Below, piece after piece: positions 18,935 through 48,178 of a stretch of 64,000 nucleotides of DNA. Source of the stretch: a virus (lineage: Duplodnaviria > Heunggongvirae > Uroviricota > Caudoviricetes); the IMG/VR virus record IMGVR_UViG_2823949316_000001, positions 5,531-69,530 of that record. One strand, given 5' to 3'. A model generated the notes under the pieces. It had not been told where the DNA came from. It searched no databases and saw only the letters and a list, made by a program, of their open reading frames with translations. How positions within the stretch are numbered: position 1 is the first letter of the stretch; every line of letters starts with the position of its first letter. A program made the position numbers and the translations under genes.

Positions 18935-18954
18935 TTCGGGCGCACATAGGGCTC
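18935..18954 (+). repeat. TTCGGGCGC-N5-GGGCGC family motif, copy 1 (TTCGGGCGCACATAGGGCTC)
   Basis: Intergenic. Followed by an extended -10 TGgTACAAT at 19005-19014 and the gene at 19049. Confidence 0.55.
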
Positions 18955-19048
18955 AGATCGCCAAAAGTGATCAAGTGTAAAGCCCGGGCATTGATCAGAA
19001 ATGATTGGTACAATTCAGGCTCAACCCCAACACATCGCAGAGGCTCAC

Positions 19049-19282
19049 ATGAGCGAATTCCAACCGGTCACCACCGTGCGCGACCTGGCGACCATCGACG
19101 AGAACGAGTGCATGGCCGGCTACCTGGCTGGCCTGCGTGGCGCGCCTGAGCCTGGCAACACCGCGACGCGCTCCGCGTGGCATGGCTGGCGCAACGGCAT
19201 GGTCGACGGCGGTCACCGCGAGAAGGACTGGCACCAGTCCGTGCTGGCTGCTGACGTCTGCCTGCGGATGCCGCTGCAGTGA
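19049..19282 (+). CDS. Rmf/CrpP-like small protein (78 aa; ...CMAGYLAGLRG...SAWHGWRNGM...)
   Basis: In-frame ATG with AGAGG RBS downstream of the promoter-like TGgTACAAT. The pattern GY.AG..G......W.GWR resembles ribosome modulation factor / CrpP-like domains. Confidence 0.45.
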   Translation: MSEFQPVTTVRDLATIDENECMAGYLAGLRGAPEPGNTATRSAWHGWRNGMVDGGHREKDWHQSVLAADVCLRMPLQ

Positions 19283-19461
19283 GGTCTTTCTGGTGGCTGA
19301 TGGCCGGGCTTGGGTGCTGCGGCCTCGCGCTGGTGGCGATGATCGCCGGCGTCGCGGTCGACGCTACTCCGCGCTGGCTGGCCGGATGCACGATGGGGGC
19401 TGTCGCCGCGTCCATGGTCTGCGCGCTGCTGGCCTTGTCGGCCGATAGGGTGTCGGCATGA
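19279..19461 (+). CDS. Small membrane protein (60 aa)
   Basis: GTGA overlap with the upstream stop. Two hydrophobic segments. Confidence 0.4.
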   Translation: MRSFWWLMAGLGCCGLALVAMIAGVAVDATPRWLAGCTMGAVAASMVCALLALSADRVSA

Positions 19462-19832
19462 ACGTCTGCACCTGGAAGGCGCCCATGGTCACCCTGTACA
19501 CCGGCGAGCAGGTGCCCAGCGACAGCGAGGCCTGGCGCGCTGAGTGTGAGGCGCGCCACATCCTGACCATGACCCAGGCCCAGCGCATGGAGTTCTTCAC
19601 CATGGTCGAGAAGCGCCGCGGCACCGACGCAGCCAAGGCCCTCAAGATGCGCTGCTACGAGCTCGAGCCGCACTACGTGCTCAACCTGCCGAACAAGCAG
19701 CAGCGGCAGCACTACCTGGACGCCGTCGAGCTGCGCTTCGGCAAGAACCCATGCGACACCCTGAAGGCCAAACTGCTCGCCCTGCACGCCGCGCGACAAC
19801 CAGTTGCAGCGCAGGTTCAACAAAGCGCATAA
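19458..19832 (+). CDS. Hypothetical protein (124 aa)
   Basis: ORF-track protein. ATGA coupling. Confidence 0.5.
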   Translation: MNVCTWKAPMVTLYTGEQVPSDSEAWRAECEARHILTMTQAQRMEFFTMVEKRRGTDAAKALKMRCYELEPHYVLNLPNKQQRQHYLDAVELRFGKNPCDTLKAKLLALHAARQPVAAQVQQSA

Positions 19833-19876
19833 TTGCTCAAATACAACGCACCGGCGGAGCCGGTAAGGGGAAAGGG

Positions 19877-20128
19877 GTGAGCAAACTTCTCAGGCTGCTG
19901 GATATCATCGTCCCGCGCTTCATTTCCGAGGACACGGCAGTTCGCCGCGTCGGAAAATCGTCGATGTACGAGCCAGTGTGCTCGATGAAAGACATCGACC
20001 CAGGTGAGCGTTTCGATGGGATCGCCACCTACGTGATGTTCAACCTGTTCGGCCAGGGCCTGTTCCCTCGCCAGGTGGGCAGCATCCGCCCCTGGGTGAA
20101 CCCGCACGACGCGCAGGTGGCATCGTGA
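19877..20128 (+). CDS. Hypothetical protein (83 aa, MSKLLRLLDIIVPRFISEDTAV...)
   Basis: GTG start after an ACCGGC-GGA-GCCGGT hairpin and the AAGGGGAAAGGGGTG cassette. In-frame 3' part of ORF 19751..20128. Confidence 0.45.
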   Translation: MSKLLRLLDIIVPRFISEDTAVRRVGKSSMYEPVCSMKDIDPGERFDGIATYVMFNLFGQGLFPRQVGSIRPWVNPHDAQVAS

Positions 20129-20541
20129 TCCGCGCCGCGGCATTGGCCGCTGCACTGGTGGTGCTGGGTGGGTGCGACGGTGGCAGCCCCTCATACGGCG
20201 AGCTGAAGCCATACGATCAACCTGTCGGCCTGAAGGCTCGCGACGCTGATCGCTACGACCTTCTGGTTCTGCGCGACCCAGAGCGCGGGGTTACCTGCTG
20301 GCGACCCAGCAACGACAATCGAGCGCTGTCCTGCTTGCCAGACTGGATGCTCCAGGCCCAAGGGCCATCGGAAGCCATTGCCCATCAGCCGACCTGGGGC
20401 GATGGTCGCCCTTGCGCTGGGCACAAGGTGTGCGAGGGGTTCAGCAACCGTCGTGAGGCCCTGGCCTGCGCCGAAGGCCGACTGACCGGCCCAGCGTGCG
20501 ATGCTTGGGCTGAGCGCCAGCGTGAGGATCGTGGCCTATGA
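20125..20541 (+). CDS. Predicted lipoprotein (138 aa; signal peptide + lipobox LGGC)
   Basis: MIRAAALAAALVVLGGCDGG... GTGA-coupled. 6 Cys in the mature part. Confidence 0.5.
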   Translation: MIRAAALAAALVVLGGCDGGSPSYGELKPYDQPVGLKARDADRYDLLVLRDPERGVTCWRPSNDNRALSCLPDWMLQAQGPSEAIAHQPTWGDGRPCAGHKVCEGFSNRREALACAEGRLTGPACDAWAERQREDRGL

Positions 20542-21736: not shown

Positions 21737-21963
21737 GCAAGACCGCTCAGCGCCGGCGATCGGCCTACCAGAACGGCTATCGCGTGGGTCGCTACGGCTG
21801 GCCCGAAGGCGTGAAGAGCTACCGCGTGGGCGTGATCGGCGATGCAGCCTACGAGCGTGGCCTGCGCGATGGCCGCAAAGACCGCCGCGCCGCCCAGGAT
21901 CTGGGGCAGTCCATGCCGCGCCGCGTGCTCGCCTGGCTCAGCGGCCTGATGACCAAGCCCTGA
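21733..21963 (+). CDS. Second Rmf/CrpP-like small protein (76 aa; ...SAYQNGYRVGRYGWPEG...)
   Basis: GTGA-coupled. It is the 3' in-frame part of ORF 21529..21963. Confidence 0.4.
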   Translation: MSKTAQRRRSAYQNGYRVGRYGWPEGVKSYRVGVIGDAAYERGLRDGRKDRRAAQDLGQSMPRRVLAWLSGLMTKP

Positions 21964-22030
21964 CTAGCAATCTGGTGCTCTGGGTCGCCGGCCCCAGGGA
22001 ATACGCCACTTCCAGCCGGTATAAACCATC

Positions 22031-22051
22031 ATCGGGCGCCATTAGGGCGCC
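22031..22051 (+). repeat. TTCGGGCGC-N5-GGGCGC family motif, copy 2 (ATCGGGCGCCATTAGGGCGCC), fused to the ACAAGGGGAAAGGAAATG cassette
   Basis: Immediately upstream of the ACP gene. Confidence 0.55.
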
Positions 22052-22066: not shown

Positions 22067-22309
22067 ATGGGCAAGACCGTAGAGCAGCGCGTCATCGAGA
22101 TCGTCGAGCAGCAGCTGGGCCTGGGCGGCAATGAGCCAGTGACCGCCGAGCAGCACATCCTGAACGACCTGGGCGGCGATAGCCTCGACTTCATCGAGAT
22201 TGTCATGGCCATCGAGGAGGAGTTCGAGATCGAGATCAGTGACGACGCCGCCGAAGGTGCGCAGACCGTTCAAGAAGCCATCGATCTGGTCAAGCGCCTG
22301 GTCGACTGA
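22067..22309 (+). CDS. Acyl carrier protein-like (80 aa; DSL phosphopantetheine-attachment motif LGGDSLDFIE)
   Basis: Acidic 4-helix-sized protein with Ser in the DSL motif. Preceded by motif copy 2 and a strong RBS, followed by a GGCGCC-TGCG-GGCGCC hairpin. Confidence 0.7.
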   Translation: MGKTVEQRVIEIVEQQLGLGGNEPVTAEQHILNDLGGDSLDFIEIVMAIEEEFEIEISDDAAEGAQTVQEAIDLVKRLVD

Positions 22310-23265: not shown

Positions 23266-23510
23266 GCAGGTCAATTACCGGAAGCAAAGGCCCAGGCTAC
23301 GACTTCTGGTCGCGCAGGCCATTCAGCGGTCGAGGGCATGGCGCGGTGGTCAAGCACTTCTGCCACAAGGCGGAGCGGCAGCAGGGTCGCCGCGCACCTG
23401 CCCAAGCGTTGCGCGCGGAGCACAAAGCCGATGCGGCTGACGATGCATTTGAGGTATGGGAGTGCGATCAGATTGATCGGCTTTACGGGCTTCGCGAACT
23501 ACAACCCTGA
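23262..23510 (+). CDS. Hypothetical protein (82 aa)
   Basis: GTGA-coupled. In-frame 3' part of ORF 23007..23510. Confidence 0.4.
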   Translation: MSRSITGSKGPGYDFWSRRPFSGRGHGAVVKHFCHKAERQQGRRAPAQALRAEHKADAADDAFEVWECDQIDRLYGLRELQP

Positions 23511-23576
23511 TACACCATCAGGGCATCAACGCTCGCCACGCCAGACGCTGCAAGGGCTGGCGAGCACACCGCACAC

Positions 23577-23600
23577 CTTCGGGCGCCATTCGGGCGCACC
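23577..23600 (+). repeat. TTCGGGCGC-N5-GGGCGC family motif, copy 3 (CTTCGGGCGCCATTCGGGCGCACC)
   Basis: Intergenic, upstream of the HTH protein / ParB-MTase pair. Confidence 0.5.
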
Positions 23601-23736: not shown

Positions 23737-24189
23737 ATGACCATGGCGGAGCTGACCGAGGTGACCGGCATCCCGTCGCGCGTGCTCGCCGCGCAAAAGC
23801 GTGCAGAGGGCTGGGCCAAGGTGGTCAAGTCCGGCCAAACCGAAGAGGCCGCAGAGGCGGTGATCCGCTTCAACGAGTGGAAGATGCAGGTCGCCGAGGT
23901 CAACGCCCGCGATGGCGAGGCCATGCCGAACCTGGCCGTGCCCCTGCACGAGGACGCCGTGCACAAGCTGCTCGAGCGCCACAAGGCCGAACTGATCGCG
24001 CCGCGCGTCCTGTCGCAGGAGGCGATCAAGATCCGGCACAGCGACCCGAACATGGCGTTCCAGAAGGCGAAGCTGGCCAAGATCACGGCCGAGACGCTGG
24101 ACATCCTGCATCGGGCCGAGCGCCGGGCCTTTGGCGTGAAGGACGACGAGAAGCCGGGCGGCGGCGTGGTGGTGGTGGAGCGGACATGA
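23737..24189 (+). CDS. HTH DNA-binding protein (about 150 aa); possibly a small-terminase-like or regulatory protein
   Basis: ATG 23737 (alternative in-frame GTG at 23671) in ORF 23338..24189. N-terminal ...MAELTEVTGIPSRVLAAQKRAEGW... Stop overlaps the ParB-MTase start (ATGA). Confidence 0.4.
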   Translation: MTMAELTEVTGIPSRVLAAQKRAEGWAKVVKSGQTEEAAEAVIRFNEWKMQVAEVNARDGEAMPNLAVPLHEDAVHKLLERHKAELIAPRVLSQEAIKIRHSDPNMAFQKAKLAKITAETLDILHRAERRAFGVKDDEKPGGGVVVVERT

Positions 24190-25694
24190 GCGACCTGAGC
24201 AAGATGATGGGCCTCGACCCGGACGTGCCGCAGATCAAACTGCGCCCGCTCGACAGCCTGGTGGCCTACGCCCGCAACAGCCGCACGCACTCGCCGGCCC
24301 AGGTCGAGCAGCTGCAGGCCCTCCTGCTGGAATACGGCTGGACGAACAGCGTCCTGATCGACGACATGGGCATCGTCGCCGGGCACGGGCGCTGCATGGC
24401 CGCTGAGGCGATCTACAAGCGCGGCGAGCAGATCAAGTTCCCGAATGGCACGCCGATCCCGATCGGCATGGTGCCGACCATGGACGTCACCGGCTGGAGC
24501 GCGCAGCAGCGCCGGGCGTACATCATCGCCGACAACCGCTCCGCCCTGTCCGCGGGCTGGGACGACGAAATGCTGAAGCTGGAGCTGGCCGAGCTGAAGG
24601 AAGCCGACTTCGACCTGTCGCTGACCGCCTTCGACGAGGACGAGCTGGCGGCGCTGCTGGCGCCGGAGATCGAGCTGCCCGAAGACAAGGATCCGGACGC
24701 AGCACCTGCAGCACCCGATGAGCCCGTCAGCGTGCCGGGCGACGTGTGGGTGATGGGCGCGCACCGGCTGTGCGTCGGTGATGCCACCAGCGTCGATGCC
24801 TGGGATCGCCTGCTGGGCACCGAGCAGGTCGATATCGTCTGGACAGATCCACCCTACAACGTCGACCAGGGCCGCAAGAACCGCGAGCAGGACAAGTGGG
24901 ACGGCGGCAACCGCGCGGACACGGGCGCGATCGCCAACGACAAGATGTCGCCGGCCGAGTTTTCCGAGTTCCTGCAGACCACCTTCGCCACCCTGTTCGG
25001 CGTGATGAAGCCAGGGGCGCCGATCTACGTGGCGCACTCCGACCTCGAGGGCCAGACCTTCCGCAACGCCTTCGCCGACGCCGGCCTGCACCTGCAGTCC
25101 TGCCTGGTCTGGAAGAAAGACCGGATGGTGCTGGGGCGCATGGACTGGCAGAGCATCCACGAGCCGATCCTGTACGGCTGGAAGAAGGGCAGCGCGCACC
25201 GCTGGTACGGCGGCCGCAAGAACACCAGCGTGATCGACCTGGGCGACGGCTCGCCGTTCACCCGCATGGAGGATGGCCGGTACCAGGTGCGCATCGGCGA
25301 GAGCGTGCTGGTGGTGTCGGCGGATGCCATGGTCGAGCAGCATCCGTCGTCGATGTTGTTCGAGCCCAAGCCGGCGAGCAGTGGCCTGCATCCGACGCAG
25401 AAGCCCGTTGCCCTTGTCGAGCGGATGCTGAAGCAGTCCGCACGTGCCGGCGACCTGGTGGCCGATGCCTTCGGCGGATCCGGCAGCACGCTGATCGCCG
25501 CCGATCGCCTGGGCATGTCGGCACGCCTGATGGAGCTCAGCCCGAAGTTCGCCGACGTGATCGTGCGGCGCTGGGAGCACTACAGCGGGCGCAAGGCGGT
25601 GCACGCGGTGACCGGCGAGGAGTTCCCGGGCGAGGGCGAGGCCCGCGCGCTACCGCCGCAGGTTGATGACCTTGACGACGAAGCGTTGTTCTGA
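24186..25694 (+). CDS. ParB-like nuclease domain fused to beta-class N6A/N4C DNA methyltransferase
   Basis: In-frame ATG (MSDLSKMMGL...) in ORF 23877..25694. ParB-like N-terminus (KLRPLDSLVAYARNSRTHSPAQVEQL). Motif IV VWTDPPYN followed by C-terminal motif I DAFGGSGST. Confidence 0.85.
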   Translation: MSDLSKMMGLDPDVPQIKLRPLDSLVAYARNSRTHSPAQVEQLQALLLEYGWTNSVLIDDMGIVAGHGRCMAAEAIYKRGEQIKFPNGTPIPIGMVPTMDVTGWSAQQRRAYIIADNRSALSAGWDDEMLKLELAELKEADFDLSLTAFDEDELAALLAPEIELPEDKDPDAAPAAPDEPVSVPGDVWVMGAHRLCVGDATSVDAWDRLLGTEQVDIVWTDPPYNVDQGRKNREQDKWDGGNRADTGAIANDKMSPAEFSEFLQTTFATLFGVMKPGAPIYVAHSDLEGQTFRNAFADAGLHLQSCLVWKKDRMVLGRMDWQSIHEPILYGWKKGSAHRWYGGRKNTSVIDLGDGSPFTRMEDGRYQVRIGESVLVVSADAMVEQHPSSMLFEPKPASSGLHPTQKPVALVERMLKQSARAGDLVADAFGGSGSTLIAADRLGMSARLMELSPKFADVIVRRWEHYSGRKAVHAVTGEEFPGEGEARALPPQVDDLDDEALF

Positions 25695-25776
25695 TTGTGC
25701 AAACCCAGATCACCAGTCTGGGAATCCAAGCCTATAAAGCTGAGTCCTTTCAACAACTTACGCCAAATAGCAAGGG

Positions 25777-25798
25777 TCTCGGGCGCGTATAGGGCTCA
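25777..25798 (+). repeat. TTCGGGCGC-N5-GGGCGC family motif, copy 4 (TCTCGGGCGCGTATAGGGCTCA)
   Basis: Intergenic, in a lower-GC stretch upstream of the AraC-family gene. Confidence 0.5.
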
Positions 25799-25907: not shown

Positions 25908-26888
25908 GTGGCAGGACTTCCCGCAACCCCCGGCATCGAGATCCAGCATTTCGAAAACGCGGGCATCCGGATATTCACCGGCAAGTACACTGGACAGATA
26001 GACAATTTTACCGTGCCTGAGCACGTCGTGGTTCTGTCGCACTCGGATTACAAGCCGATCAGTTATGCTCCGGTAGAGCGCTGGAAGGTGAACGATGTCT
26101 GCTTCCTCCCCAAGGGATACACGCAGACCGGGCACCTGGCTGAGCTCGCCGAGCTGACTGCTATCAGGATGAGCGACGACCTCTTCACCAAGGTGGCCGA
26201 GGATCACGTCGACCACTCCCGCATCGAATTCCGCTATGCCGACATCACCGGGCCGACGACGCAGTCTCTGTCCGGAGCGCTTCGGCACATGTCCATGACC
26301 GAAGGATTCCGCGAGTGGCCGCTGCTGATCGAGAGCACGGCGATTGCCCTGGCTGTCGCTGCCGTGCGCAAGCTGTCGCCCAAGGCGTCGGTTGCATTCG
26401 ACAAGCAGAGCGAGCTCAGCGCGGCCAGGCGCCGGCGGGTGATGGACTTCATCGACGACAACATCCACCGGCAGATCACCCTGGCTGAGTTGGCAGCAGC
26501 GGCCAACCTGAGCGCCTTCCACTTCGCGCGCCGGTTCAAGGCTGCGACCGGCCAGACGCCGCTGCGGTTCATCGCCGAGCGGCGGGTGGTGGAGGCCAAG
26601 AAGCGCCTGCGTTCAGGGGTGATGCCGCTGGCACAGGTCGCACTGGAATGCGGCTACACCGGCCAGAGCCACTTCACCACAGCGTTCAAGGCCGTTACCG
26701 GCGTCACCCCGGGCATCTACCGCCGGGGAGCTCAGGCGGTGCTGATCGCCGGCCTGCTCTGCTTTTCCCTCATGTACAACGTCGCGACCCAGGCGGGCGC
26801 CATGGATGTCCTGATGGCCGCTATGCATGAGTTCGGCCACGAAGTCGTCGAGTTCGCGGTCGATCTGGATGACTTTCTTGAGCCGTAG
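25908..26888 (+). CDS. AraC/XylS-family transcriptional regulator (326 aa)
   Basis: C-terminal double HTH (...ITLAELAAAANLSAFHFARRFKAATGQTPLRFIAERRVVEAKKRL...ALECGYTGQSHFTTAFKAVTGVTPGIYRR). N-terminal sensor domain. The GTG start at 25908 has no clear SD, so the start is uncertain. Confidence 0.75.
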   Translation: MAGLPATPGIEIQHFENAGIRIFTGKYTGQIDNFTVPEHVVVLSHSDYKPISYAPVERWKVNDVCFLPKGYTQTGHLAELAELTAIRMSDDLFTKVAEDHVDHSRIEFRYADITGPTTQSLSGALRHMSMTEGFREWPLLIESTAIALAVAAVRKLSPKASVAFDKQSELSAARRRRVMDFIDDNIHRQITLAELAAAANLSAFHFARRFKAATGQTPLRFIAERRVVEAKKRLRSGVMPLAQVALECGYTGQSHFTTAFKAVTGVTPGIYRRGAQAVLIAGLLCFSLMYNVATQAGAMDVLMAAMHEFGHEVVEFAVDLDDFLEP

Positions 26889-28728: not shown

Positions 28729-28768
28729 CCAGACTGCGAGTCTGGGTGTCACCACCTGCAACACCAGC

Positions 28769-28800
28769 AGCGGCGCGCCATCTGAGCGCGCCGCTCTGTT
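28769..28800 (+). terminator. Terminator-like hairpin (AGCGGCGCGC-7nt-GCGCGCCGCT) followed by motif copy 5
   Basis: 10-bp perfect stem followed by a weak T tract (TCTGTTTC). Confidence 0.45.
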
Positions 28801-28820
28801 TCGGGCGCGTATCGGGCGCC
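28799..28820 (+). repeat. TTCGGGCGC-N5-GGGCGC family motif, copy 5 (TTTCGGGCGCGTATCGGGCGCC)
   Basis: Upstream of the higBA-like pair. Confidence 0.5.
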
Positions 28821-28872
28821 TCGGCATGGATTCACACTTGACCGCTATACCGCCTCACGGTATAGGCTGATC

Positions 28873-29163
28873 ATGATATCGAGCTTCCGAGATGCCTGGC
28901 TGCATGAGTTCTACGTCAACGGTACCGGGCACCGGCTGATCCCTGGCGCTATGGAAGGGGCTCTGGCCAGGAAGCTGGACATCATCCGCTTCGCCACGAC
29001 CGAGGGCGATCTGCGGGTACCGCCCGGGAACCGGTTCGAGCACCTGCACGGCAAGCTGGCCGCCTACTGCTCGATCCGGGTCAACAAGCAGTACCGCCTG
29101 ATCTTCCGCTGGAACGACGGCAAAGCGAGCGACGTATACCTGGATCCGCACACGTACCGGTGA
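28873..29163 (+). CDS. higB: HigB-like (RelE/ParE superfamily) toxin
   Basis: 96 aa. C-terminal ...RVNKQYRLIFRWNDGKASDVYLDPHTY matches the HigB/killer-protein pattern (..WRITF.F.NGDAY.L.Y.DYH). Confidence 0.7.
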   Translation: MISSFRDAWLHEFYVNGTGHRLIPGAMEGALARKLDIIRFATTEGDLRVPPGNRFEHLHGKLAAYCSIRVNKQYRLIFRWNDGKASDVYLDPHTYR

Positions 29164-29168
29164 GAGAC

Positions 29169-29474
29169 ATGATCGAGACCAACCGCAAGCCCACGACTGT
29201 CGGCGAGATCCTGACCGCCGAGTTCCTGGAGCCGATGGAGCTGACCCAGACCGACCTGGCCCGGGCCATGGGCGTGCAGACGCGCCTGGTCAACGAGCTG
29301 TGCCGCGATCGCCGGGCCGTGACCGCGGACACCGCCCTGATGCTGGCCGGCGTGTTCGGCACGTCGCCTGAATTCTGGCTCAACGCCCAGCAGGCCACCG
29401 ACCTGTGGGAGGCCATGCACGACGAGAAGCGCCGGCAGCGTATTGCCCGGGCGCGGCCGCTGCAGGCTGCCTGA
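29169..29474 (+). CDS. higA: HigA-like XRE-family HTH antitoxin
   Basis: ...ELTQTDLARAMGVQTRLVNELCRDRRAVTADTALMLAGVFGTSPEFWLNAQ... Overlaps the higB stop (GTG at 29160 or ATG at 29169). Confidence 0.7.
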   Translation: MIETNRKPTTVGEILTAEFLEPMELTQTDLARAMGVQTRLVNELCRDRRAVTADTALMLAGVFGTSPEFWLNAQQATDLWEAMHDEKRRQRIARARPLQAA

Positions 29475-30787: not shown

Positions 30788-31434
30788 GCCTCCTTATCCC
30801 GATGTCGCACGCCGACCTGTGCGCCACCGCGGTGAAGTGGCTGAAGCGGGCGAACTCGGCCGGCGGCCCGGGCTGCCACGTGGCGGTCAGCGAGTGCCGG
30901 TCGGGCTGGACTGGTGAGGTGCCGGACGCGATCGGGTTCCGCGCTGCTGGCAGCTACGACGACGGGTCGGTCGTGGTCGAGTGCAAGACCAGCCGTGCCG
31001 ACTTCCTGGCCGATCGCAAGAAGGCGCACCGCACCACCGGCGGCTGCGGCAACTGGCGGTATTTCATGGCGCCAGAGGGGCTGATCAGCCCTGACGAGCT
31101 GCCGCCAGGCTGGGGCCTGCTCACGGTGAACAGCCGCGGGCACGTGAAGGCAGTGGCCGGCCCTGCGGCGCACTACGGCGGGCGGTACGACGCCAGGCTC
31201 GAGGCCATCGAGGCCTTCCGCCACGTCGCCGATCGCGACCGCGAGCAGTTCCTGCTGACGAAGTTGCTGCACCGTGTCGGCGATGCCGAGGAGATGAACC
31301 GGAAGATCAAGGCTGTCTACGCGGAGCAGACCAGGCTGATCAATCGCGTGAACTCGCAGATCAGGGAACTCGACGAGCTGCGCAACGAGAACTGGCGCCT
31401 GAAGCACGCGCTTGAGCAGGCTCAATCCAGATAG
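30784..31434 (+). CDS. Putative PD-(D/E)xK-type nuclease with C-terminal coiled coil (216 aa), GTGA-coupled to the methyltransferase
   Basis: ...GEVPDAIGFRAAGSYDDGSVVVECKTSRADF... gives a D ... E-x-K arrangement. The nuclease assignment is a motif-level inference. Confidence 0.45.
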   Translation: MSLLIPMSHADLCATAVKWLKRANSAGGPGCHVAVSECRSGWTGEVPDAIGFRAAGSYDDGSVVVECKTSRADFLADRKKAHRTTGGCGNWRYFMAPEGLISPDELPPGWGLLTVNSRGHVKAVAGPAAHYGGRYDARLEAIEAFRHVADRDREQFLLTKLLHRVGDAEEMNRKIKAVYAEQTRLINRVNSQIRELDELRNENWRLKHALEQAQSR

Positions 31435-31467
31435 ATAATCAGGGCGTCACAGCTCAGGAACACAAGG

Positions 31468-31498
31468 ACGGCGCGGCCTGCGAGGGTTGCGCCGTTTT
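31468..31498 (+). terminator. Rho-independent terminator-like hairpin + TTTT
   Basis: ACGGCGC-14nt-GCGCCGT then TTTTCATT. Immediately followed by motif copy 6. Confidence 0.5.
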
Positions 31499-31519
31499 CA
31501 TTGGGCGCACATAGGGCGC
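31498..31519 (+). repeat. TTCGGGCGC-N5-GGGCGC family motif, copy 6 (CATTGGGCGCACATAGGGCGCA)
   Basis: Upstream of the SPFH gene. Confidence 0.5.
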
Positions 31520-31603
31520 AGGTGTTGCAATTGATCAGAAAAGAGTAATAGAATTGCGTCACTGCCGAGGCATGAGCCAGGCAGAACTCCAGAGGAAAGG
31601 AAT

Positions 31604-34052: not shown

Positions 34053-34243
34053 GTAGCACTCGCGTGTCATCACGCCAGATCCCATGCTGGCCTACGCCGT
34101 GCAGTAAAGAGGGATGCGTTTACCTCAATGCTGACGGCGTTTGCGGCGAGCCCAGAATTAACCGAGGGAATAGCGATGCCGCGTGCCATCGAATGAATCC
34201 GAAGGACGTCCTGGCGGCTCTGTCGATCACTCCCAGACACTGA
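34049..34243 (+). CDS. Small Cys-rich protein (64 aa)
   Basis: GTGA-coupled. 6 Cys. Confidence 0.35.
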   Translation: MSSTRVSSRQIPCWPTPCSKEGCVYLNADGVCGEPRINRGNSDAACHRMNPKDVLAALSITPRH

Positions 34244-34275
34244 ATCAGGGTGTCACAGTATCAAGATCAAGCAGC

Positions 34276-34305
34276 GGCGCGGCCTTAAAGGCTGCGCCAT
34301 TTTTC
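34276..34305 (+). terminator. Rho-independent terminator (GGCGCGGCC-TTAAA-GGCTGCGCC + ATTTTTC)
   Basis: 9-bp stem with one mismatch, followed by a T-run and then motif copy 7. Confidence 0.55.
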
Positions 34306-34326
34306 TAGGGCGCCAATAGGGCGCAA
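34305..34326 (+). repeat. TTCGGGCGC-N5-GGGCGC family motif, copy 7 (TCTAGGGCGCCAATAGGGCGCA)
   Basis: Followed by GAGGAAAGGACATG and the gene at 34345. Confidence 0.5.
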
Positions 34327-37968: not shown

Positions 37969-38016
37969 TGACCAGATGCCAAGTCAGGGGCTCAGCCTCC
38001 TGATCGCCTACTGACG

Positions 38017-38045
38017 CGCCGCCTACAAGGGCGGCGTTGTCGTTT
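38017..38045 (+). terminator. Rho-independent terminator (GCGCCGCC-TACAAG-GGCGGCG + TTGTCGTTT)
   Basis: Follows the gene at 37968 and directly abuts motif copy 8. Confidence 0.55.
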
Positions 38046-38063
38046 CGGGCGCTGGTAGGGCGC
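38041..38063 (+). repeat. TTCGGGCGC-N5-GGGCGC family motif, copy 8 (GTTTCGGGCGCTGGTAGGGCGCG)
   Basis: Heads the 240-nt structured leader of the 1295-aa gene. Confidence 0.5.
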
Positions 38064-38285: not shown

Positions 38286-41200
38286 ATGACCACTATCGTG
38301 CCCACGTCTATGCATCGCCAAGTCCTGCTGATCAAAGCCCAGGGTGATTTCAAGCACTCTGGAAAATACTTCCTGCAGAACGGGCGGTGGCATAAATTGC
38401 ACCCGGACAAGCCGGCGCCGAAGGGCGCGCCAGTGGCGGCCCACCCGAAGGCCGCCGGTAACCACGCGCCTGTGGCGCACTTCACCGACGACGAGTGGCA
38501 GAAGCTCAAGCTGCCAGCCGAGAACAGCAACGCCGGCACCTTCAACAAGCAGCTCGAACAGCTCAAGCAGCTGAGCGACGCCGGCGACGTGACCGGCATC
38601 CTCGGCATGCAGCTCGGCACGAATACCTACGGAAAAAAGCTCTCGACGATCGCCAACCACCTGCTCGGCCTGCACGGCAGCGAGCACAAGGTCGCGCCCG
38701 GGCAGAAGGCTGGCGAGCATGCGGCTGTGCAGCAGGCGCCGGCTGAGCACAGCGCAGCGTCACCGGCCACCGAGCCCAAGGCGGAGGAGAAGCCAGCCGC
38801 CCCGGCCGAGAAGCCAGCGGCGAGCAAGCCTGACGCCATCGCCAAGTTCCAGGCCTCGCATGCGAAGCAAGGCACACCATCGACAACGGTCGATGGCAAA
38901 GACTGGTTCGTGGTCGGCACTGGCACCACCAATGACGAAGGCAAGGTCTACGCGCACCTGGCGAGCAAGACCGAAGGCCAGGTTCAGAAAAACGGCTTCG
39001 TACCGAAACAGATGGCCGACTGGATCGACCCGGCGACGATCAGCGACCCGAAGAAGACGGCAGCTGCTGCAGCATCGAAGGCGACCGGCTTGCCCATGCC
39101 CGCCTTCGTGGAAGGCAAGACCACCACTGGGGTGGTCAGCTACTACGAGGCCCAGGCCCAGAAAATCCTCGACATGGCCGCCGCCGGCGACGTGGAAGGC
39201 CTGGCGGCCATGAAGGAAGACGGCCTGAAGCCGAACAGCAAAGGCAAGGTCAGCAACACCTTCAAGGGCAAGACCGAGAACAGCAAAACGCTGCTGGCGC
39301 TGCATGCGCAGGCGGTCGTGCATGCCAAGGGTGGCGCCACCGCGGAACAGCCGGCACCAGCGGCCGAGGCCAGCACCCCTGCGCCGGCCGAGCCTTCGCC
39401 GGCCGAGAAAGTGAAGCAGGCCACGCAGGCAGCCACCGCTGCCGTGGCGCAGACGCCAGAGCACCAGGAGGCGGTCGCGATCGCCACTGCCAGCCTGGCC
39501 GGCTCGAAGGTCTCCCAGATCCCGTGGGACAGCCAGCTGCTGCCGGACAGCAACAAGAACGCAAAGAGCCACAACAAGCAGGTCGCGAAGATCCAGGCGA
39601 TGGCCGAGGCCGGTGACCTGGCTGGGCTGGAGGCGCTGAAATTCGGCACCAACACCTACGGCAAGAAGCAGGAGAAGCTGAAGCAGCTGGCGATCGCCGC
39701 GCTGCAGGAGGACGCCGCAGCGCCTGTACCTGCTGCCGCACCTGCGCCTGCCGAGAAGAAGGGCTACGACAAGTACGGCATCTTCGACAGCCTCACGAGC
39801 GACATCGACACTGCCGCCAGCGGCGGCGATGCGTCCACGCTGAAGGACATCGAATCCTACCTGAATACGCCGGCCCACAAGAACGAGCCCGGGCTGGACG
39901 CGATCAAAAAATATCTGGATAGGGCAAAGGCGTCCGTGGCGACACCGGCGGCTCCTGCCGCAGAGCAAGGCCCCAAGGAAGGCGACACCAAGCAAGGCGC
40001 CGATGGCATGCTCGTGTTCAAGGACGGCCGCTGGCACAAGCAGGCCGAGCCGGCAGCAGCCGCTCCTGAGCCTGCCCCAGCCCATCCGATCGACGCAGTC
40101 CCGATGCCGGAGCTCACCTTCTCGAGCGCCGCCAGCAACGCGAAGGTGGCGGCCGCCCTGGAGAAGCTGAAGGAACAGATCAAGGCGGAAGGGCCTGGCG
40201 CGCTCAAGGGCGTAACCAAGCACATGAAGAGCAAGGGCAAGTACATCGTCAGCCTGCCCGGCACATACGGCAGCCTGAAGGTGTACGGCTACGAGCACGC
40301 GCCCGACCATGCTGGCACCAAGGTGCACGCCTACATCGAGGCACTGAAAGCTGCAGCAGGCAAGCCCAGCAAGGCCCCCGCGAAAGCCAAGGCCAAAAAT
40401 CCTGTCGTTGACGCCGATGGCATCCAGTCCATGGACAGCTGGAAGAAGACCGGGGAGCAGGCCGGCTCGAACCCAGGCGGCAAGTTCAAGGACGAGAACG
40501 GCGTCGAGTGGTACTGCAAATTCCCGTCCGACGAGGATGTCGCCAAGTCCGAGGTGCTGGCCGCGAAGCTCTACGCTGTCGCCGGCGTGATCGGCCAGGA
40601 CGCGAAGCTGATCAAGAAGGACGGCAAGCTGGGCATCGCTTCCCGCTGGACGACCGTGAGCAAGGCTGCGCCAAAGGATCTGGCCAAGGCCGCGGGCGCG
40701 CAGTCCGGGTTCGCCGTCGACGCGTGGCTCGCGAACTGGGACGTCGTCGGCATGGGCTTCGACAACCTGCAGGTCGGGCCGGATGGCAAGGCCGTCCGCG
40801 TCGATGCCGGCGGCTCACTCACCTACCGCGCCCAGGGCGGCAAGAAGGCGTTCGGCGCCACCGTCGCCGAGATCGACAGCATGCGCGACGCGAAGGTCAA
40901 CGCCCAGTCGGCGGCCGTGTTCGGCAGCATGACCCAGGCCGACCTGACGGCATCCGTGGCGAAGGTGGCGGCGATCCCTGATTCCGCCATCAAGAACCTG
41001 GTGGAGCTGCACGGCCCAGGCGATGCGGCAGAGCGCAAGGCGCTGGCTGACACTCTGATCGCCCGCAAGAACGACCTGATCGCCAAGTATCCCAAGGCTG
41101 CCAAGACGCCGAAAAAGCGCCTTGACCCGAACAGCCTGCCGGTCGATCCGGATCGCCTGCCGAAGGCGCACGACTTCAACAACTGGCTGGGCGCCGGCAA

Positions 41201-42173
41201 GCCTCTGTCGTCGCAGCCGCACGTCAACGCCGCGAACATGGCGGTTGAGCAGGAGCTGCTGGCGCTCGCCAAGACCGGCAACCTGACCAAGCTGAAAGAC
41301 TTCCAGTTCCACGCCATCGACAAGGCCACGGGCAACCAGACCGGCCAGCTGATCCCGATCGCCGAGCATCCGTCAAAGCACGTCGTTCAGCTGCACGCCG
41401 ACCTGGTGATGGCCCTGGACGAGATCGCCAACCCGCCGCAGCCCCTGAAGGTCTTCCAGGAGACCGACGTCGGCACGATCGACCAGCTGGCCGCGGCGCT
41501 GCCGTCGAAGAAGTTCGGCACCACCGTCACCTCGGTGCACTCGAACGAGAAGCTGGGCTTCTGGGTGGTGCTGGGCACGGCGCACGGCGCAGCGAAGTTC
41601 AAACCGTCCAAGGTGATGGACTATTCGAGCGCGGCGATCGCGGCGGCGAAAGAGAAGTTCCAGCAGGCCAGCCACCTGGCCAAGCACTTCATCTACTCGG
41701 TGCAGGCATCCGGCAGCTACAACGACCTGTTCCGCGCCGGCAAGTCGCACGATCACGCCGGCAACAAGCTGTCGGACGTGGCCAAGGCCGCGCTCGAGCA
41801 CGCGACCACCATGCCGGAAGGCACCAGCTTGTACCGCTGGCAGTCGATACCTGACGACATGGTGAAGAAGATCCTGGACGCGCCGGACGGCACTGTCTTC
41901 CAGGCCACCGGCCCTATGTGCACCTCGTACCACCCAACCGGTACGGCAGGGTTCGGCAAGCACCGCGTGACCGTGCGCTACGCCAATGGCGCCAAGGCGG
42001 TAGAGAGCTTCGCATCCGGGAAGTTTTCCGGTGAAAAAGAGGTGACCACGCTGCCGAACTCGCGCTTCGTGATCCTCAAGAAGGAGATGGTGCCTGACGT
42101 CGAGCACGGGAACCCGGGCGGCAAGCGCCTGGAGCTGGAGGTGCTGATGTTACCTCCCGATATGGGCCTGTGA
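38286..42173 (+). CDS. 1295-aa polyvalent protein: N-terminal tandem repeats (GTNTYGKK-type), Ala/Pro-rich linkers, central atypical-kinase-like domain, C-terminal R-S-ExE mono-ADP-ribosyltransferase-like domain
   Basis: Uninterrupted 3.9-kb ORF. About 45-aa repeats ...AGDVTGILGMQLGTNTYGKK... / ...AGDLAGLEALKFGTNTYGKK..., plus degenerate copies. Kinase-like motifs GSNPGGKFKDENGVEWYCKF (Gly-rich loop + Lys), DAWLANWD (D-x4-N), VRVDAGG (DFG-like). C-terminal LYRW (Arg), CTSY (STS-like), SGEKEV (ExE) at ART-typical spacings. Confidence 0.8.
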   Translation: MTTIVPTSMHRQVLLIKAQGDFKHSGKYFLQNGRWHKLHPDKPAPKGAPVAAHPKAAGNHAPVAHFTDDEWQKLKLPAENSNAGTFNKQLEQLKQLSDAGDVTGILGMQLGTNTYGKKLSTIANHLLGLHGSEHKVAPGQKAGEHAAVQQAPAEHSAASPATEPKAEEKPAAPAEKPAASKPDAIAKFQASHAKQGTPSTTVDGKDWFVVGTGTTNDEGKVYAHLASKTEGQVQKNGFVPKQMADWIDPATISDPKKTAAAAASKATGLPMPAFVEGKTTTGVVSYYEAQAQKILDMAAAGDVEGLAAMKEDGLKPNSKGKVSNTFKGKTENSKTLLALHAQAVVHAKGGATAEQPAPAAEASTPAPAEPSPAEKVKQATQAATAAVAQTPEHQEAVAIATASLAGSKVSQIPWDSQLLPDSNKNAKSHNKQVAKIQAMAEAGDLAGLEALKFGTNTYGKKQEKLKQLAIAALQEDAAAPVPAAAPAPAEKKGYDKYGIFDSLTSDIDTAASGGDASTLKDIESYLNTPAHKNEPGLDAIKKYLDRAKASVATPAAPAAEQGPKEGDTKQGADGMLVFKDGRWHKQAEPAAAAPEPAPAHPIDAVPMPELTFSSAASNAKVAAALEKLKEQIKAEGPGALKGVTKHMKSKGKYIVSLPGTYGSLKVYGYEHAPDHAGTKVHAYIEALKAAAGKPSKAPAKAKAKNPVVDADGIQSMDSWKKTGEQAGSNPGGKFKDENGVEWYCKFPSDEDVAKSEVLAAKLYAVAGVIGQDAKLIKKDGKLGIASRWTTVSKAAPKDLAKAAGAQSGFAVDAWLANWDVVGMGFDNLQVGPDGKAVRVDAGGSLTYRAQGGKKAFGATVAEIDSMRDAKVNAQSAAVFGSMTQADLTASVAKVAAIPDSAIKNLVELHGPGDAAERKALADTLIARKNDLIAKYPKAAKTPKKRLDPNSLPVDPDRLPKAHDFNNWLGAGKPLSSQPHVNAANMAVEQELLALAKTGNLTKLKDFQFHAIDKATGNQTGQLIPIAEHPSKHVVQLHADLVMALDEIANPPQPLKVFQETDVGTIDQLAAALPSKKFGTTVTSVHSNEKLGFWVVLGTAHGAAKFKPSKVMDYSSAAIAAAKEKFQQASHLAKHFIYSVQASGSYNDLFRAGKSHDHAGNKLSDVAKAALEHATTMPEGTSLYRWQSIPDDMVKKILDAPDGTVFQATGPMCTSYHPTGTAGFGKHRVTVRYANGAKAVESFASGKFSGEKEVTTLPNSRFVILKKEMVPDVEHGNPGGKRLELEVLMLPPDMGL

Positions 42174-46279: not shown

Positions 46280-46326
46280 TCAGCCAACACAACAGAGCCG
46301 GGCAACGCCCGGCAGGGGAAAGGAAG

Positions 46327-46845
46327 GTGAAATTAGTAGAGTTGCTGGCACGGAAGCTGGGCGAGTGGCCTGATAGCTGCATGGTTATCGCCCAGGACTT
46401 AAGCGGCATAGTATTTCTTTGGAAGTATCAAGACATCGAGTTCGAGGGTAATGGGTGGCGTCACCGAACGAACATGGGTCTTTGTGATTTCGAGTATGAA
46501 ATCGGCCAGCACGAGACTTGCACTGACCACGCCACCGCCATCGTCACCCGCGAGCAGTGGCAGGCCGAGCGTGATCGACTGATCGCCAGCGGCGAAGAGC
46601 TGCCCACCCATCGCATCGTCGGTGACGCCAACGATGCCGAGGGCGCGCTGGCCGGCGCCCAGGCCGAGGCCGACACCTGGGAGCAGCGCGCCGTCAAAGA
46701 GGCAACCCGCGTCGTCGAGCTGGAGGCGGAGCGAGCCGATCTCGTAGCGGCACTGGAAGCCATTATCACCATTTCCGACCGCAAGCACGACGCATGGGAT
46801 CACGCCAAGGCGCTGATTGCCCGCGTCAAGGGCGGTGCGCAATGA
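46327..46845 (+). CDS. Hypothetical protein (172 aa) with a low-GC N-terminal domain and a C-terminal coiled coil ending ...VKGGAQ
   Basis: GTG start. The first ~200 nt are markedly AT-richer than the rest, suggesting a chimeric gene. Confidence 0.5.
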   Translation: MKLVELLARKLGEWPDSCMVIAQDLSGIVFLWKYQDIEFEGNGWRHRTNMGLCDFEYEIGQHETCTDHATAIVTREQWQAERDRLIASGEELPTHRIVGDANDAEGALAGAQAEADTWEQRAVKEATRVVELEAERADLVAALEAIITISDRKHDAWDHAKALIARVKGGAQ

Positions 46846-47138
46846 ACCATCATCTCCTGATCGGGCAGAAGCTCCAGCAGCTGCTGGATCTTGCCGAGCG
46901 CGCGCGGCAGAACACCGACCTGCTCAGCAACCACTTCGAGAGCAAAGTCCCGCAACGCCTGACCGACCACTTGGCAGCGCTGCTTGATCACCAGCAGAAG
47001 ATCATGGCAGCGGACGGTGGCGAGAGCGCCGGCGCCGACTACATGACGTCAATCGATGCTGATATCCGCAAGGTAAAGCACGCCCTCACCGCGTATGTTC
47101 CTGAAGCGGCGGGCCTGGTGAGCGGAGGTGCGCAATGA
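46842..47138 (+). CDS. Hypothetical protein (98 aa) ending ...SGGAQ
   Basis: ATGA-coupled in-frame ATG in ORF 46794..47138. Confidence 0.45.
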   Translation: MNHHLLIGQKLQQLLDLAERARQNTDLLSNHFESKVPQRLTDHLAALLDHQQKIMAADGGESAGADYMTSIDADIRKVKHALTAYVPEAAGLVSGGAQ

Positions 47139-47356
47139 GCATCATCGAGCAGATCGCCGGGCGACTGTTCGCCATCGAAATGCTGCGCAGCGTAGACGGC
47201 ATGCCGAAGTCGATGTTTGCCGATGGTGGCGGCCTGGACACCGTGGCGCGCAATCTGGAAGCCACTGCAGCGCGCTATCCCGCTGACTACGCCGCCGGCA
47301 TCCGCCAGGTGACCGGCCAGGTGCTCGCCAAGCTGGCGGCTGGGGGTGGGAAGTGA
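47135..47356 (+). CDS. Hypothetical protein (73 aa)
   Basis: ATGA-coupled. Confidence 0.4.
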   Translation: MSIIEQIAGRLFAIEMLRSVDGMPKSMFADGGGLDTVARNLEATAARYPADYAAGIRQVTGQVLAKLAAGGGK

Positions 47357-47712
47357 GCATCGTCAAGGTCAAAAAGGCTTTGGTCATCACCCTTGGTGCC
47401 GGGAGCGTGCTGGTCGGGCAGGCCGTCACGCGCCACCAGGCGGCACTGTGCTTCGTCCGGCCAGCAGAGTCGAAGGCGCCAGGAACGCCTGCGCCTGAGC
47501 TGGACAACACCATGCAGGTTGAGGATGTCGACGCAGCCATCGCCTTCCCGGACGTCCTGGCGATCGATCGCATGATCAACAACCTCACCCAGCTGCGCGC
47601 CGCCTTCGCGGAAGCCAGGAAGCAGCCGGCCAAATGCGTCGAGTGCGACGACGGCATGTGCGGCGGCACCGGCATCTACGAAGGCCGCAAGTGCGATGGG
47701 ATACCGTTCTGA
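47353..47712 (+). CDS. Hypothetical protein (119 aa) with C-terminal CVECDDGMCGG...C zinc-binding-like motif
   Basis: GTGA-coupled. Confidence 0.4.
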   Translation: MSIVKVKKALVITLGAGSVLVGQAVTRHQAALCFVRPAESKAPGTPAPELDNTMQVEDVDAAIAFPDVLAIDRMINNLTQLRAAFAEARKQPAKCVECDDGMCGGTGIYEGRKCDGIPF

Positions 47713-48089
47713 TGGGCTGTGTCATCGAAGGGGAGCGCTGTACTCGATGCTGCGAAGCAATCACTCTGAAAATGAGCCGGTCGCAACTTCTGGCTCATCC
47801 ATCTTCAGATGCCCAGTTCATCCGCGAGCACTGGAAGCCGATCAGTAAGCGTAGGGCGAAGAAGAAAAACCCTTACCTGTTTCAGCGGCACCCGCGCCTG
47901 CAATCTGCAAAGGCATGGCGCCTGTACCACTGCACGGCTCTGACAAGTGAGGGATGCGGAAAGTACGAGGATCGTCCGGCGGTGTGCAGCGGTTACCCTC
48001 TGTATGGGGCGGGCGGCCTGCACAGCAGGCCTGACTATCACCCGCAGTGCGTGGAGTGGAAAATGATCGACGTGGTGCAGAATCCCTGA
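47712..48089 (+). CDS. YkgJ-like cysteine-cluster protein (125 aa; CTRCCEAI...C...C)
   Basis: TGATG-coupled in-frame ATG in ORF 47634..48089. The 5' half is lower GC. Confidence 0.45.
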   Translation: MGCVIEGERCTRCCEAITLKMSRSQLLAHPSSDAQFIREHWKPISKRRAKKKNPYLFQRHPRLQSAKAWRLYHCTALTSEGCGKYEDRPAVCSGYPLYGAGGLHSRPDYHPQCVEWKMIDVVQNP

Positions 48090-48154
48090 TCCCAAAGCAG
48101 GGCATCAACACCGCCTCACCCTCGGTGCAGTAAGGCTGCAGTGGTGAGGCGAAA

Positions 48155-48178
48155 ACTTCGGGCGCGTATAGGGCGCTC
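48155..48178 (+). repeat. TTCGGGCGC-N5-GGGCGC family motif, copy 9 (ACTTCGGGCGCGTATAGGGCGCTC)
   Basis: Follows a long CGCCTCACC...GGTGAGGCG hairpin (48112-48151). Upstream of the phosphatase gene. Confidence 0.5.

Follow-up and report, generated by a model that had tools for sequence, protein, structure and literature searches.

Nine copies of a short direct repeat lie between the genes of a 64,000-nucleotide stretch of a tailed-phage genome (Caudoviricetes; positions 5,531 to 69,530 of IMG/VR record IMGVR_UViG_2823949316_000001), which we refer to in its full length as the window. Here we report that each copy forms one end of an approximately 92-bp module, that the architecture of the module is repeated at the phage attachment site (attP) of related phages, that modules and attP sequences change together from phage to phage, and that modules occur in relatives with an integrase and are absent from integrase-less ones. 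Judging from these sequence comparisons, the modules are likely to be attachment-like sites bound by the phage integrase together with IHF or HU. They are probably recombination sites and possibly transcriptional insulators.

RESULTS

The repeats are one end of a longer module

The original prediction described nine same-strand, intergenic copies of a TTCGGGCGC-N5-GGGCGC motif. We searched the window for TTCGGGCGCNNNNNGGGCGC, allowing up to two mismatches, and used 100 dinucleotide-preserving shuffles as the null. The search returned nine matches, all intergenic and on the plus strand, with 20-mers starting at 18935, 22031, 23578, 25778, 28800, 31500, 34305, 38044, and 48157. The shuffles gave a mean of 1.14 matches, and none of the 100 reached nine. 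Relaxing the search to three mismatches added matches in the window at the chance level only. The nine copies are thus borne out, and the GGGCGC direct repeat with an 11-bp period that had been noticed within them is real. Three of the nine predicted coordinates were exact, whereas the other six were shifted by 1 to 3 nt.

The repeat had been taken for a free-standing 20-bp motif, which it is not. An inverted repeat (IR), CCWGA-N7-TCWGG, is present in the window in eight exact copies, versus 0.27 expected, and a ninth copy, at 48085, has one mismatch. The IR starts 71 to 73 bp before the 20-mer in all nine cases. Because an IR lies at a fixed distance before every copy, we define the unit as a module of about 92 bp that consists of a 17-bp IR, a spacer of 55 to 58 bp, and a 20-bp direct repeat (DR).

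A family set of 76 unique modules, with spans of 91 to 94 bp, was collected from Pseudomonas phage Dolphis and about 20 viral contigs; the counts that follow refer to this set or to subsets of it. The IR consensus is aCCWGAY-NNNN-ARTCWGGg, followed by G..TCA, and the DR consensus is tT(C/A)GGGCGC-nnaT(A/C)GGGCGCa. The DR therefore consists of two tandem boxes 11 bp apart, the second of which reads TCGGGC as frequently as TAGGGC. At IR positions 1, 2, 4, 5, 13, 14, 16, and 17, 74 or more of the modules have the consensus base. Outside the module ends, we detected no conservation either upstream or downstream in the 76 modules.

The arms of the IR showed no covariation across the set: positions 3 and 15 are complementary in 46 modules and not in 30 (Fisher p=0.15), positions 6 and 12 gave an odds ratio of 1.06 (p=1.0), and the central pair is A·A or T·T in 30 of 76. 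Since the arms vary independently, the IR appears to act as a protein site with two-fold symmetry in double-stranded DNA and not as a stem, and a hairpin of RNA or single-stranded DNA is ruled out on the same grounds.

The spacer differs in character from both ends. Where orthologous modules lie between the same pair of genes, as seen in five genomes, their spacers are equal in size and unrelated in sequence, which suggests that the length is constrained and the sequence is free. The sole sequence signals detected in it are weak (AA.CCC at +15-20 and CAA-N4-TT at +29-37), and matches to the IHF consensus WATCAANNNNTTR peak at a fixed offset of +26, where the score is 4.4/9 versus a background of about 2.7. 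Compared with shuffled sequences, spacers are significantly folded (z<-2) in 19 of the 76 modules, with a mean z of -1.0. The repeats had been said to lie usually right after a terminator-like hairpin. This holds to the extent that five of the nine window spacers fold at z<-2, but a terminator-like consensus scan flagged only two of the nine, and the upstream IR had been counted into the hairpins. A constant intrinsic terminator is ruled out as a part of the module by the folding and scan results.

Modules are placed precisely with respect to genes. The upstream gene usually ends within the IR or a few bases ahead of it, and in 28 of 67 modules the TGA of CCTGA serves as its stop codon. Distances from the DR to the following start codon are bimodally distributed, with less than 20 nt in 18 of 55 modules and up to about 400 nt otherwise (6 to about 400 nt overall). 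Where the distance is below 20 nt, there is no room for a downstream promoter. Sigma70-like promoters are found behind only some DRs, at variable distances, and a promoter scan of the window identified one site, after module 6. The proposal that the repeat is a promoter or sigma-factor site is accordingly not supported by spacing or conservation, and the lack of a conserved downstream region, of fixed spacing, and of any annotated RNA polymerase or sigma factor speaks against a T7-like or sigma-type promoter. No known structured RNA or tRNA was detected: Rfam searches in E-value mode gave no credible match and one spurious long noncoding RNA, and ARAGORN found no tRNA genes. The divergent switch region at 3423-3526 contains neither an IR nor a DR, which speaks against an immunity-repressor operator.

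Module architecture recurs at attP

The intergenic region between int and gp43 of Dolphis contains the sequence aaAGA-CTACGAA-TCTGG-GGGTC-AGAGGTTCGAATCCTTT-CGGGCGC-G-CCA. This segment corresponds to the anticodon loop, 3' anticodon stem, variable loop, T arm, acceptor strand, and CCA of tRNA-Arg(ACG). Such a tRNA 3' segment is the usual signature of an attP with crossover in the anticodon loop. Base pairing implies that the host tRNA has the anticodon arm CCAGA-CTACGAA-TCTGG followed by GGGTCA, and this sequence agrees with the module IR wherever the latter is conserved. Copies of the 20-mer TTCGGGCGCAGGTCGGGCGC flank the Dolphis core on either side, within a set of 11 or more boxes. The boxes of attP lie several hundred base pairs from int, and some of them are inverted. 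Related sites were found in the following phages and contigs:

L070 contig attP: tRNA-Arg core as in Dolphis, with the same boxes
PHB04 attP: 3' part of tRNA-His with TCTGG; perfect IHF site AATCAACGATTTG; DR TTAGGGCGCAGGTAGGGCAC
Touem01 attP: tRNA-Arg, with GGGCCCC boxes
L071 contig attP: tRNA-Gly(CCC), CCAGC-TTGGGAA-GCTGT, with GGGCGC boxes
L072 contig attP: tRNA-Gly(UCC), GCTGC, with GGGCGC boxes
Aeromonas phage ST4 att-like site: a complete module beside int, TGAGA-CTTTTAA-TCAGA, with an IR-to-DR spacing of 74

In the ST4 site, the 7-nt spacer is identical to the anticodon loop of a phage tRNA-Lys that lies next to it. In Dolphis, Touem01, L070, PHB04, ST4, and L071, the attP core is a tRNA anticodon stem-loop, and in each case its right half-site agrees with the module IR found in that genome.

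This match extends to the differences between phages. The modules of the Pseudomonas phages and their attP alike have the right half-site TCWGG-G. TCWGA-C is found in all five arm modules of ST4 and in its int-adjacent site. GCTGT occurs in both arm modules (L171) of UViG_3300022743_000002, whose attP (L071) is a tRNA-Gly. A CAGC/GCTG class of modules was predicted from the tRNA-Gly attP cores, and a scan then gave about 14 clear modules with the usual spacing and a DR. The boxes follow suit in Touem01, where attP and the two modules alike have GGGCCCC. A single IR class is present in 12 of the 13 terminase-anchored loci with modules. Three IR classes and two box classes thus change jointly between attP and modules.

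The contig from which the window was taken (Logan SRR10143751_117, 92,590 bp) itself starts inside the 3' part of the same tRNA-Arg as in Dolphis (L176 15388-15660, record positions 1-273), after which at least nine GGGCGC boxes follow, 3.7-3.9 kb ahead of the window start. Because the contig starts inside an att tRNA segment, it is probably an integrated prophage, or its assembly broke at the att repeat. The integrase and core IR of the window phage should lie at the other end of the contig.

Two attP regions drew our attention for other features. The ST4 site (L057 32895-33120) has only the anticodon loop and one stem in common with tRNA-Lys(UUU), and the full phage tRNA-Lys gene is 48 nt downstream. 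An arrangement like that of ST4 has been described for tRNA-dependent lysogeny in mycobacteriophages (PMC10865867), and ST4 may be an example of such lysogeny in a Gram-negative myovirus. In addition, the P arm of every attP examined (including those of Touem01, PHB04, L071, and L072) contains the palindrome (T)TGATCA-N4-TGATCA(A), and a TGATCA element, ATTGATCA-N5-GATTGnTAnAnT, which resembles an extended -10, lies behind several DRs (window 18990-19015 and 31525-31554; L002 40228-40248). The TGATCA element may be an operator or a recombination directionality factor (RDF) site common to int and some cassette promoters.

Modules and boxes accompany the integrase in one phage family

The integrases of Dolphis, ST4, Touem01, and PHB04 are of the P4 type and combine PF13356 (Arm-DNA-bind_3) with PF00589. 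A natural exchange bears on the role of the first domain. The integrase of contig L067 is 62% identical to that of Dolphis over residues 68-412 but shows no relation to it in the N-terminal 67 or so residues. At the attP of L067, the tRNA-Arg core is unchanged and GGGCGC boxes are missing. This swap of the arm domain with loss of the boxes indicates that the boxes follow the arm domain of the integrase. When arm-domain residues were compared with boxes across the four integrases, Touem01 was found to have C where the others have W before IWD, an association that is suggestive only. Genes for an HU/IHF-family protein and an HTH_17 (excisionase-type) protein are also found in the phage near attP.

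The window belongs to a relative of Dolphis (MT711888), a 93.5-kb temperate myovirus. By protein synteny, it corresponds to Dolphis from about 44.5 kb, through the genome end, to 12.4 kb. Replication genes are followed by a minus-strand block, a plus-strand accessory arm of about 30 kb, and then the terminase, portal, and capsid genes. All nine window modules are within the accessory arm, and seven are found in the same arm of Dolphis. Modules are present in all four integrase-bearing phages whose genomes are complete (Dolphis, ST4, PHB04, and Touem01). In the integrase-less relatives ECML-606-1 and Mecenats66, the accessory arm is present and modules are absent.

A scan of IMG/VR with a composite pattern identified 34 loci, mostly on contigs of 90 to 95 kb and often with several modules each. 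The same kind of element is rare in host chromosomes, where a high density had been named as the main finding that would tell against the original prediction: a scan of species representatives with the same pattern (185,579 genomes, one per species, 596 Gb) gave 19 loci, all but one of them single matches, scattered over GC-rich taxa. This distribution points to a phage-family element and rules out a host repeat of the repetitive extragenic palindromic (REP) or bacterial interspersed mosaic element (BIME) kind. The idea of a putative protein-binding element that is specific to a phage family, fixed in orientation, and situated at the borders of accessory units has held up.

One contig of a metagenome-assembled genome (L039 3986-4605; JAEWKH010000001.1) has two facing modules about 440 bp apart around one small reversed gene, with the minus-strand module just upstream of that gene. 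A convergent pair is also present in L005. The facing pair of L039 may be an inverted or invertible single-gene cassette.

The nine window modules and their cargo

The modules of the window are as follows:

Module 1: 18863..18954, plus strand; IR 18863-18879, CCAGATGACCAATCAGG; spacer of 55 nt; DR 18935-18954, TTCGGGCGCACATAGGGCTC
Module 2: 21959..22050, plus strand; IR 21959-21975, CCTGACTAGCAATCTGG; DR 22031-22050
Module 3: 23506..23597, plus strand; IR 23506-23522, CCTGATACACCATCAGG; DR 23578-23597
Module 4: 25705..25797, plus strand; IR 25705-25721, CCAGATCACCAGTCTGG; DR 25778-25797; AraC-family gene downstream (25908-26888)
Module 5: 28729..28819, plus strand; IR 28729-28745, CCAGACTGCGAGTCTGG; GC-rich hairpin in the spacer; DR 28800-28819
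Module 6: 31427..31519, plus strand; IR 31427-31443, CCAGATAGATAATCAGG; 55-nt spacer with a hairpin and TTTTC; DR 31500-31519
Module 7: 34233..34324, plus strand; IR 34233-34249, CCAGACACTGAATCAGG; DR 34305-34324; ribosome-binding site, then ATG at 34345, 20 nt on
Module 8: 37972..38063, plus strand; IR 37972-37988, CCAGATGCCAAGTCAGG; hairpin 38016-38037; DR 38044-38063; upstream of a gene for a 1295-aa protein
Module 9: 48085..48176, plus strand; IR 48085-48101, CCTGATCCCAAAGCAGG, with one mismatch; DR 48157-48176

The IR of modules 2, 3, and 9 provides the TGA stop codon of the upstream open reading frame (ORF), ending at 21963, 23510, and 48089, respectively, and the upstream stop at module 6 is a TAG within the 7-nt IR spacer. 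On the other side, the acyl carrier protein (ACP) gene (PF00550) starts at 22067, 16 nt past the DR of module 2; the gene for a 605-aa DNA methylase (23877-25694) lies downstream of module 3; and module 9 is followed by a metallophosphatase gene starting at 48207 and the terminase gene at 48986. Promoter-like sequences follow three of the DRs: an extended -10 (ATTGATCAgaaatGATTGgTACAAT) about 50 nt after that of module 1, TTGACC-17-TATAGG between module 5 and higBA (28873-29474), and the sigma70-like TTGCAA-18-TAGAAT (31525-31554) between module 6 and the SPFH gene. The higBA promoter region (28838-28872) contains a perfect palindrome, TATACCGCCTCACGGTATA, that overlaps the -10-like TATAGG and is a typical antitoxin operator. 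Given this operator, the higBA cassette appears to be self-regulated independently of its module.

Modules 6 and 7 are related to each other. The right part of module 7, from IR position 10 to the DR end and including the terminator-like hairpin, is paralogous to that of module 6 with about 75% identity, so the SPFH block is bounded by direct repeats of about 80 bp. The spacer of module 7 has the only clean intrinsic-terminator-like hairpin of the nine (34276-34298, then ATTTTT). Module 6 has an orthologue in Dolphis, at L001 24650. Dolphis has a single orthologous module where the window has modules 6 and 7. As a check for modules that travel with cargo, we inspected a plasmid homologue of the SPFH gene and found no module nearby.

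Pfam identified ACP, N6/N4 methylases, AraC, HigB/HigA, SPFH, NUDIX, and metallophosphatase domains in the accessory arm. The cargo first read from the sequence is confirmed for ACP, methylase, AraC, HigB/HigA, SPFH, and metallophosphatase, but the gene described as Rmf-like and the 1295-aa protein have no Pfam match. The latter (38286-42173), previously called a "kinase/ART giant" (ART, ADP-ribosyltransferase), gave none at E<=0.001, although ADP-ribosyltransferase is the annotation that its homologues carry in Dolphis and ST4. The protein is kept even in the integrase-less relatives (37-38% identity), unlike most of the arm cargo. The divergent control region that opens the accessory arm (window 17270-17730) contains at least seven GCGACCG-type motifs, such as GGGGCGACCGACCGC, GAGGGGCGACCGACAA, and CAGCGACCGGTCGCC, and a very AT-rich block of about 100 bp at 17560-17660. 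These look like iterons and an unwinding element, and the region may be a replication origin or partition site.

Mosaic junctions at modules

We compared 75 modules with their flanks pairwise, using local alignments, and found many cases in which module and flank were discordant. Alignment starts range from IR position -11 to +12, and the ends lie 0-2 nt past the DR. In two pairs, unrelated upstream genes join a shared right side inside or just past the IR. In another pair, the module alone is shared, at 97% identity, with unrelated genes on both sides.

DISCUSSION

A candidate attL-like site at cassette junctions

The components of the module could be accounted for if each were an attL-like site, with core, bend, and arm boxes, on which the heterobivalent integrase of the phage acts at cassette junctions. 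We put this reading forward, recombination included, as the best supported one, though tentatively, since it falls a little short of an even chance. The half-sites CCWGAY/RTCWGG around a 7-bp (5+2) spacer would form a core-type part that copies the tRNA anticodon stem-loop used as the crossover by a P4-type tyrosine integrase. The two tandem T(C/A)GGGCGC boxes, identical to those on both arms of attP, would serve as the arm part, and the order of core, bend, and P'-arm sites would be the layout of an attL. Two integrase protomers would bind each module bivalently, with their catalytic and core-binding domains on the half-sites and their PF13356 arm domains on the boxes, while host IHF or the phage HU-family protein would bend the spacer. 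A pair of modules that share their 7-bp overlap could come together as a complete tetramer and carry out strand exchange, either between matching modules of two related genomes or between a resident module and a cassette in circular form, and the outcome would be the addition, removal, or swapping of accessory blocks exactly at gene borders.

We favor recombination over insulation or regulation because every module retains the full geometry for strand exchange, with a separation of exactly 7 bp between the inverted half-sites. A broader proposal is weaker still, at perhaps a third of full confidence: this family of temperate tailed phages may run an integron-like cassette system with an ordinary lambda/P4-type integrase, in which live modules would capture, delete, or swap accessory and anti-defence blocks by attL×attL-type synapsis of modules with a common 7-bp overlap. 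Recombination at the modules is itself speculative.

Several observations weigh against an attL-like role. The breakpoints do not fall on one nucleotide: some are spread between IR positions -11 and +12, and others coincide with the end of the DR. Linkage of the left half-site to the upstream gene and of the right half-site to the downstream block showed no clean partition among the modules compared. The 7-bp spacer is no better conserved between orthologues than the long spacer (loop identity of 0.50 versus a background of 0.26, a similar relative excess). With breakpoints spread and no clear linkage or 7-bp signal, site-specific exchange would be only one candidate source of the mosaicism, and short-homology recombination at the conserved module ends would give the same breakpoint picture. 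Serial insertion predicts arm-less orphan core sites, and we found none in the intergenic regions of the window. Only 14 of 76 modules have a strong IHF-like match (at least 7/9 positions at +26). PHB04 modules mix the right half-sites TCWGG, TCWGA, and TCTGT. The orientation of modules tracks that of genes in PHB04 and L039, which fits a transcriptional role as well. Finally, genes for AraC-like, TraR-like, and HTH_17 (excisionase-type) proteins, any of which could bind the DR, share the presence/absence pattern of int. Since ECML-606-1 and Mecenats66 are also without these three genes, the phyletic pattern alone cannot single out the integrase.

Regulatory and other explanations

Alternatively, the same proteins (integrase with or without an RDF, and IHF/HU) might bind the modules in a regulatory role. 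The modules would act as roadblocks or insulators between cassettes, sometimes aided by an embedded terminator, or would tie accessory expression to the integrase and RDF. As insulators, they would keep moron promoters that are active in the lysogen from reading into downstream early genes or the terminase gene. We consider this explanation rather unlikely, at about one part in four of our belief. The integrases of P4 and KplE1 are reported to repress their own promoters (see PMC2951348). Modules lie exactly at gene ends, where the TGA of CCTGA so often serves as the upstream stop; stable hairpins occupy a quarter of the spacers, some with T runs; module orientation tracks gene orientation; and the accessory arm leads straight into the terminase gene. 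The lytic, integrase-less relatives keep the same arm without modules, a further point in favor. A roadblock, however, needs neither inverted half-sites at exactly 7 bp nor arm boxes at a fixed 72 bp, and in about a third of modules, transcripts that include the next ribosome-binding site, no more than 20 nt away, have to run through the module.

The original prediction offered a different regulatory role, that of a dedicated promoter or activator site that coregulates the morons. On this view, the DR would be the site of a dedicated transcription factor for the morons and int, with the AraC-family protein and the HTH_17 RDF as candidates, and the IR would be a separate operator. The two helix-turn-helix (HTH) motifs of AraC-family proteins span about 20 bp on one DNA face. 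An AraC-like gene is present in every module-bearing phage, always adjoining a module, and is absent from two module-less ones; sigma70-like or extended -10 promoters follow some DRs; and DR boxes are found upstream of int. Yet the DR is at no fixed distance from a -10 or a start codon, nothing downstream is conserved, and the boxes of attP lie on both sides of the core, far from int and in part inverted. The boxes also vanish when only the arm domain of the integrase is swapped, and the IR matches a tRNA-derived core and changes with the tRNA target, which is unexpected for a transcription factor. We judge the explanation improbable as a whole. An AraC-type activator might act at the DR alone, an interpretation that leaves the IR, the tRNA-linked co-variation, and the arm-domain swap unexplained.

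A third explanation invokes the promoter early stem-loops (PeSLs) of T4-type phages, which consist of an early sigma70 promoter and a stem-loop, involve no recombinase, and have been proposed to drive modular shuffling (PMC2839356, PMC4122927). Modules might similarly be cassettes of terminator and promoter whose conserved ends provide short homologies for general recombination of the RecET/Red type. Mosaic breakpoints occur at both module ends, some modules combine a hairpin with a downstream promoter, and the phage encodes an exonuclease VIII/recombinase system. With only 19 of 76 spacers significantly structured, no promoter at a fixed position, and no account of the identity with attP or of the co-variation with tRNA target and arm boxes, we find this quite improbable. 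It is hardly credible that the module is an RNA-level element (a processing site, put/nut-like antitermination, or tRNA-like punctuation) or a promoter for a phage RNA polymerase or sigma factor, since the anticodon-arm geometry of the IR (a 5-bp stem and a 7-nt loop) and the likeness of TATAGGG to the start region of T7-type promoters are set against an IR without covariation and with mismatched central pairs in 30 modules, no credible Rfam match or ARAGORN tRNA, no RNA polymerase or sigma factor annotated in any relative, and a second box that is as often TCGGGC as TAGGGC and is GGGCCCC in Touem01.

Comparison with known systems

Returning to the attL-like reading, the classical example is attL of phage lambda, in which a heterobivalent tyrosine integrase binds the core BOC' and arm sites P'1-P'3 and IHF binds the H' site. 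A "bent-L" pathway for attL×attL recombination, to which the pairing of two modules into a tetramer would correspond, has reportedly been described (Segall 1998, J Biol Chem 273:24258, cited in PMC1807965). Modules share with lambda attL the inverted core half-sites around a 7-bp overlap, a spacer of about 55 bp with a weak IHF-like signal, tandem arm boxes with a period of about 11 bp, an integrase with a separate arm-binding domain (PF13356), and the presence of the same sequences at the attP of the phage. They differ in number and place: a normal prophage has one attL, at the host junction, whereas a phage genome has five to nine modules, placed internally at the borders of genes and each having a 7-bp spacer of its own. 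Modules also have no P arm or RDF side, and the integrase is P4-type and targets tRNA anticodon loops, with its activity here inferred from sequence.

Like integrons, the phages have a same-orientation array of accessory genes that includes toxin-antitoxin pairs, sites that are conserved at their ends and variable in the middle, and boundaries that coincide with gene gain and loss between relatives. An integron attC is recognized as a folded single strand with paired R and L boxes and extrahelical bases, whereas the arms of the modules do not covary. There is no IntI and no attI, the units comprise 1 to 10 genes that often have their own promoters, and arm boxes are present. Membership among integron attC sites is ruled out by the independent IR arms, by ends that are an IR and a DR and not mutually inverted boxes, and by a P4-type integrase with an arm domain.

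Cargo blocks bounded by copies of a chromosomal recombination target recognized in trans are also known elsewhere. The pdif modules of Acinetobacter plasmids are flanked by 11-6-11 XerC/D sites in alternating orientation without arm sites, and the accretion arrays of integrative and conjugative elements (ICEs) and cis-mobilizable elements (CIMEs) at tRNA genes have complete internal att sites, with each block an element. The target copied is dif in the former and a tRNA 3' end in the latter. In contrast to both, the phage modules mimic an anticodon arm, all point in the same direction, and reside in a virus. With PeSLs, the modules share their nature as short conserved intergenic cassettes in hyperplastic regions with mosaic breakpoints inside, but they have no fixed promoter and usually no stable stem-loop, and they replicate attP architecture. 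Integron attC arrays, pdif modules, and T4 PeSLs (PMC2839356) are the nearest functional analogues, and the modules belong to none of them.

Significance

The literature searched yielded no account of these repeats, nor of arrays of att-like sites inside phage genomes. The components of the module are classical, and their use as a repeated junction element within the genome of a virus appears to be undescribed. How morons and anti-defence genes enter phage genomes precisely at gene borders is a long-standing question, for which the usual answer is illegitimate recombination plus selection. If the modules are regulatory, they would present an unusual case of an integrase as a genome-wide insulator. 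If they are active integrase sites, a virus would have dedicated, enzyme-driven turnover of cassettes, using an integrase that it already carries. A heterobivalent integrase would then serve many internal sites besides attP, and the modules would be natural orthogonal att-like sites, with one protein and different 7-bp overlaps, of possible use in genome engineering.

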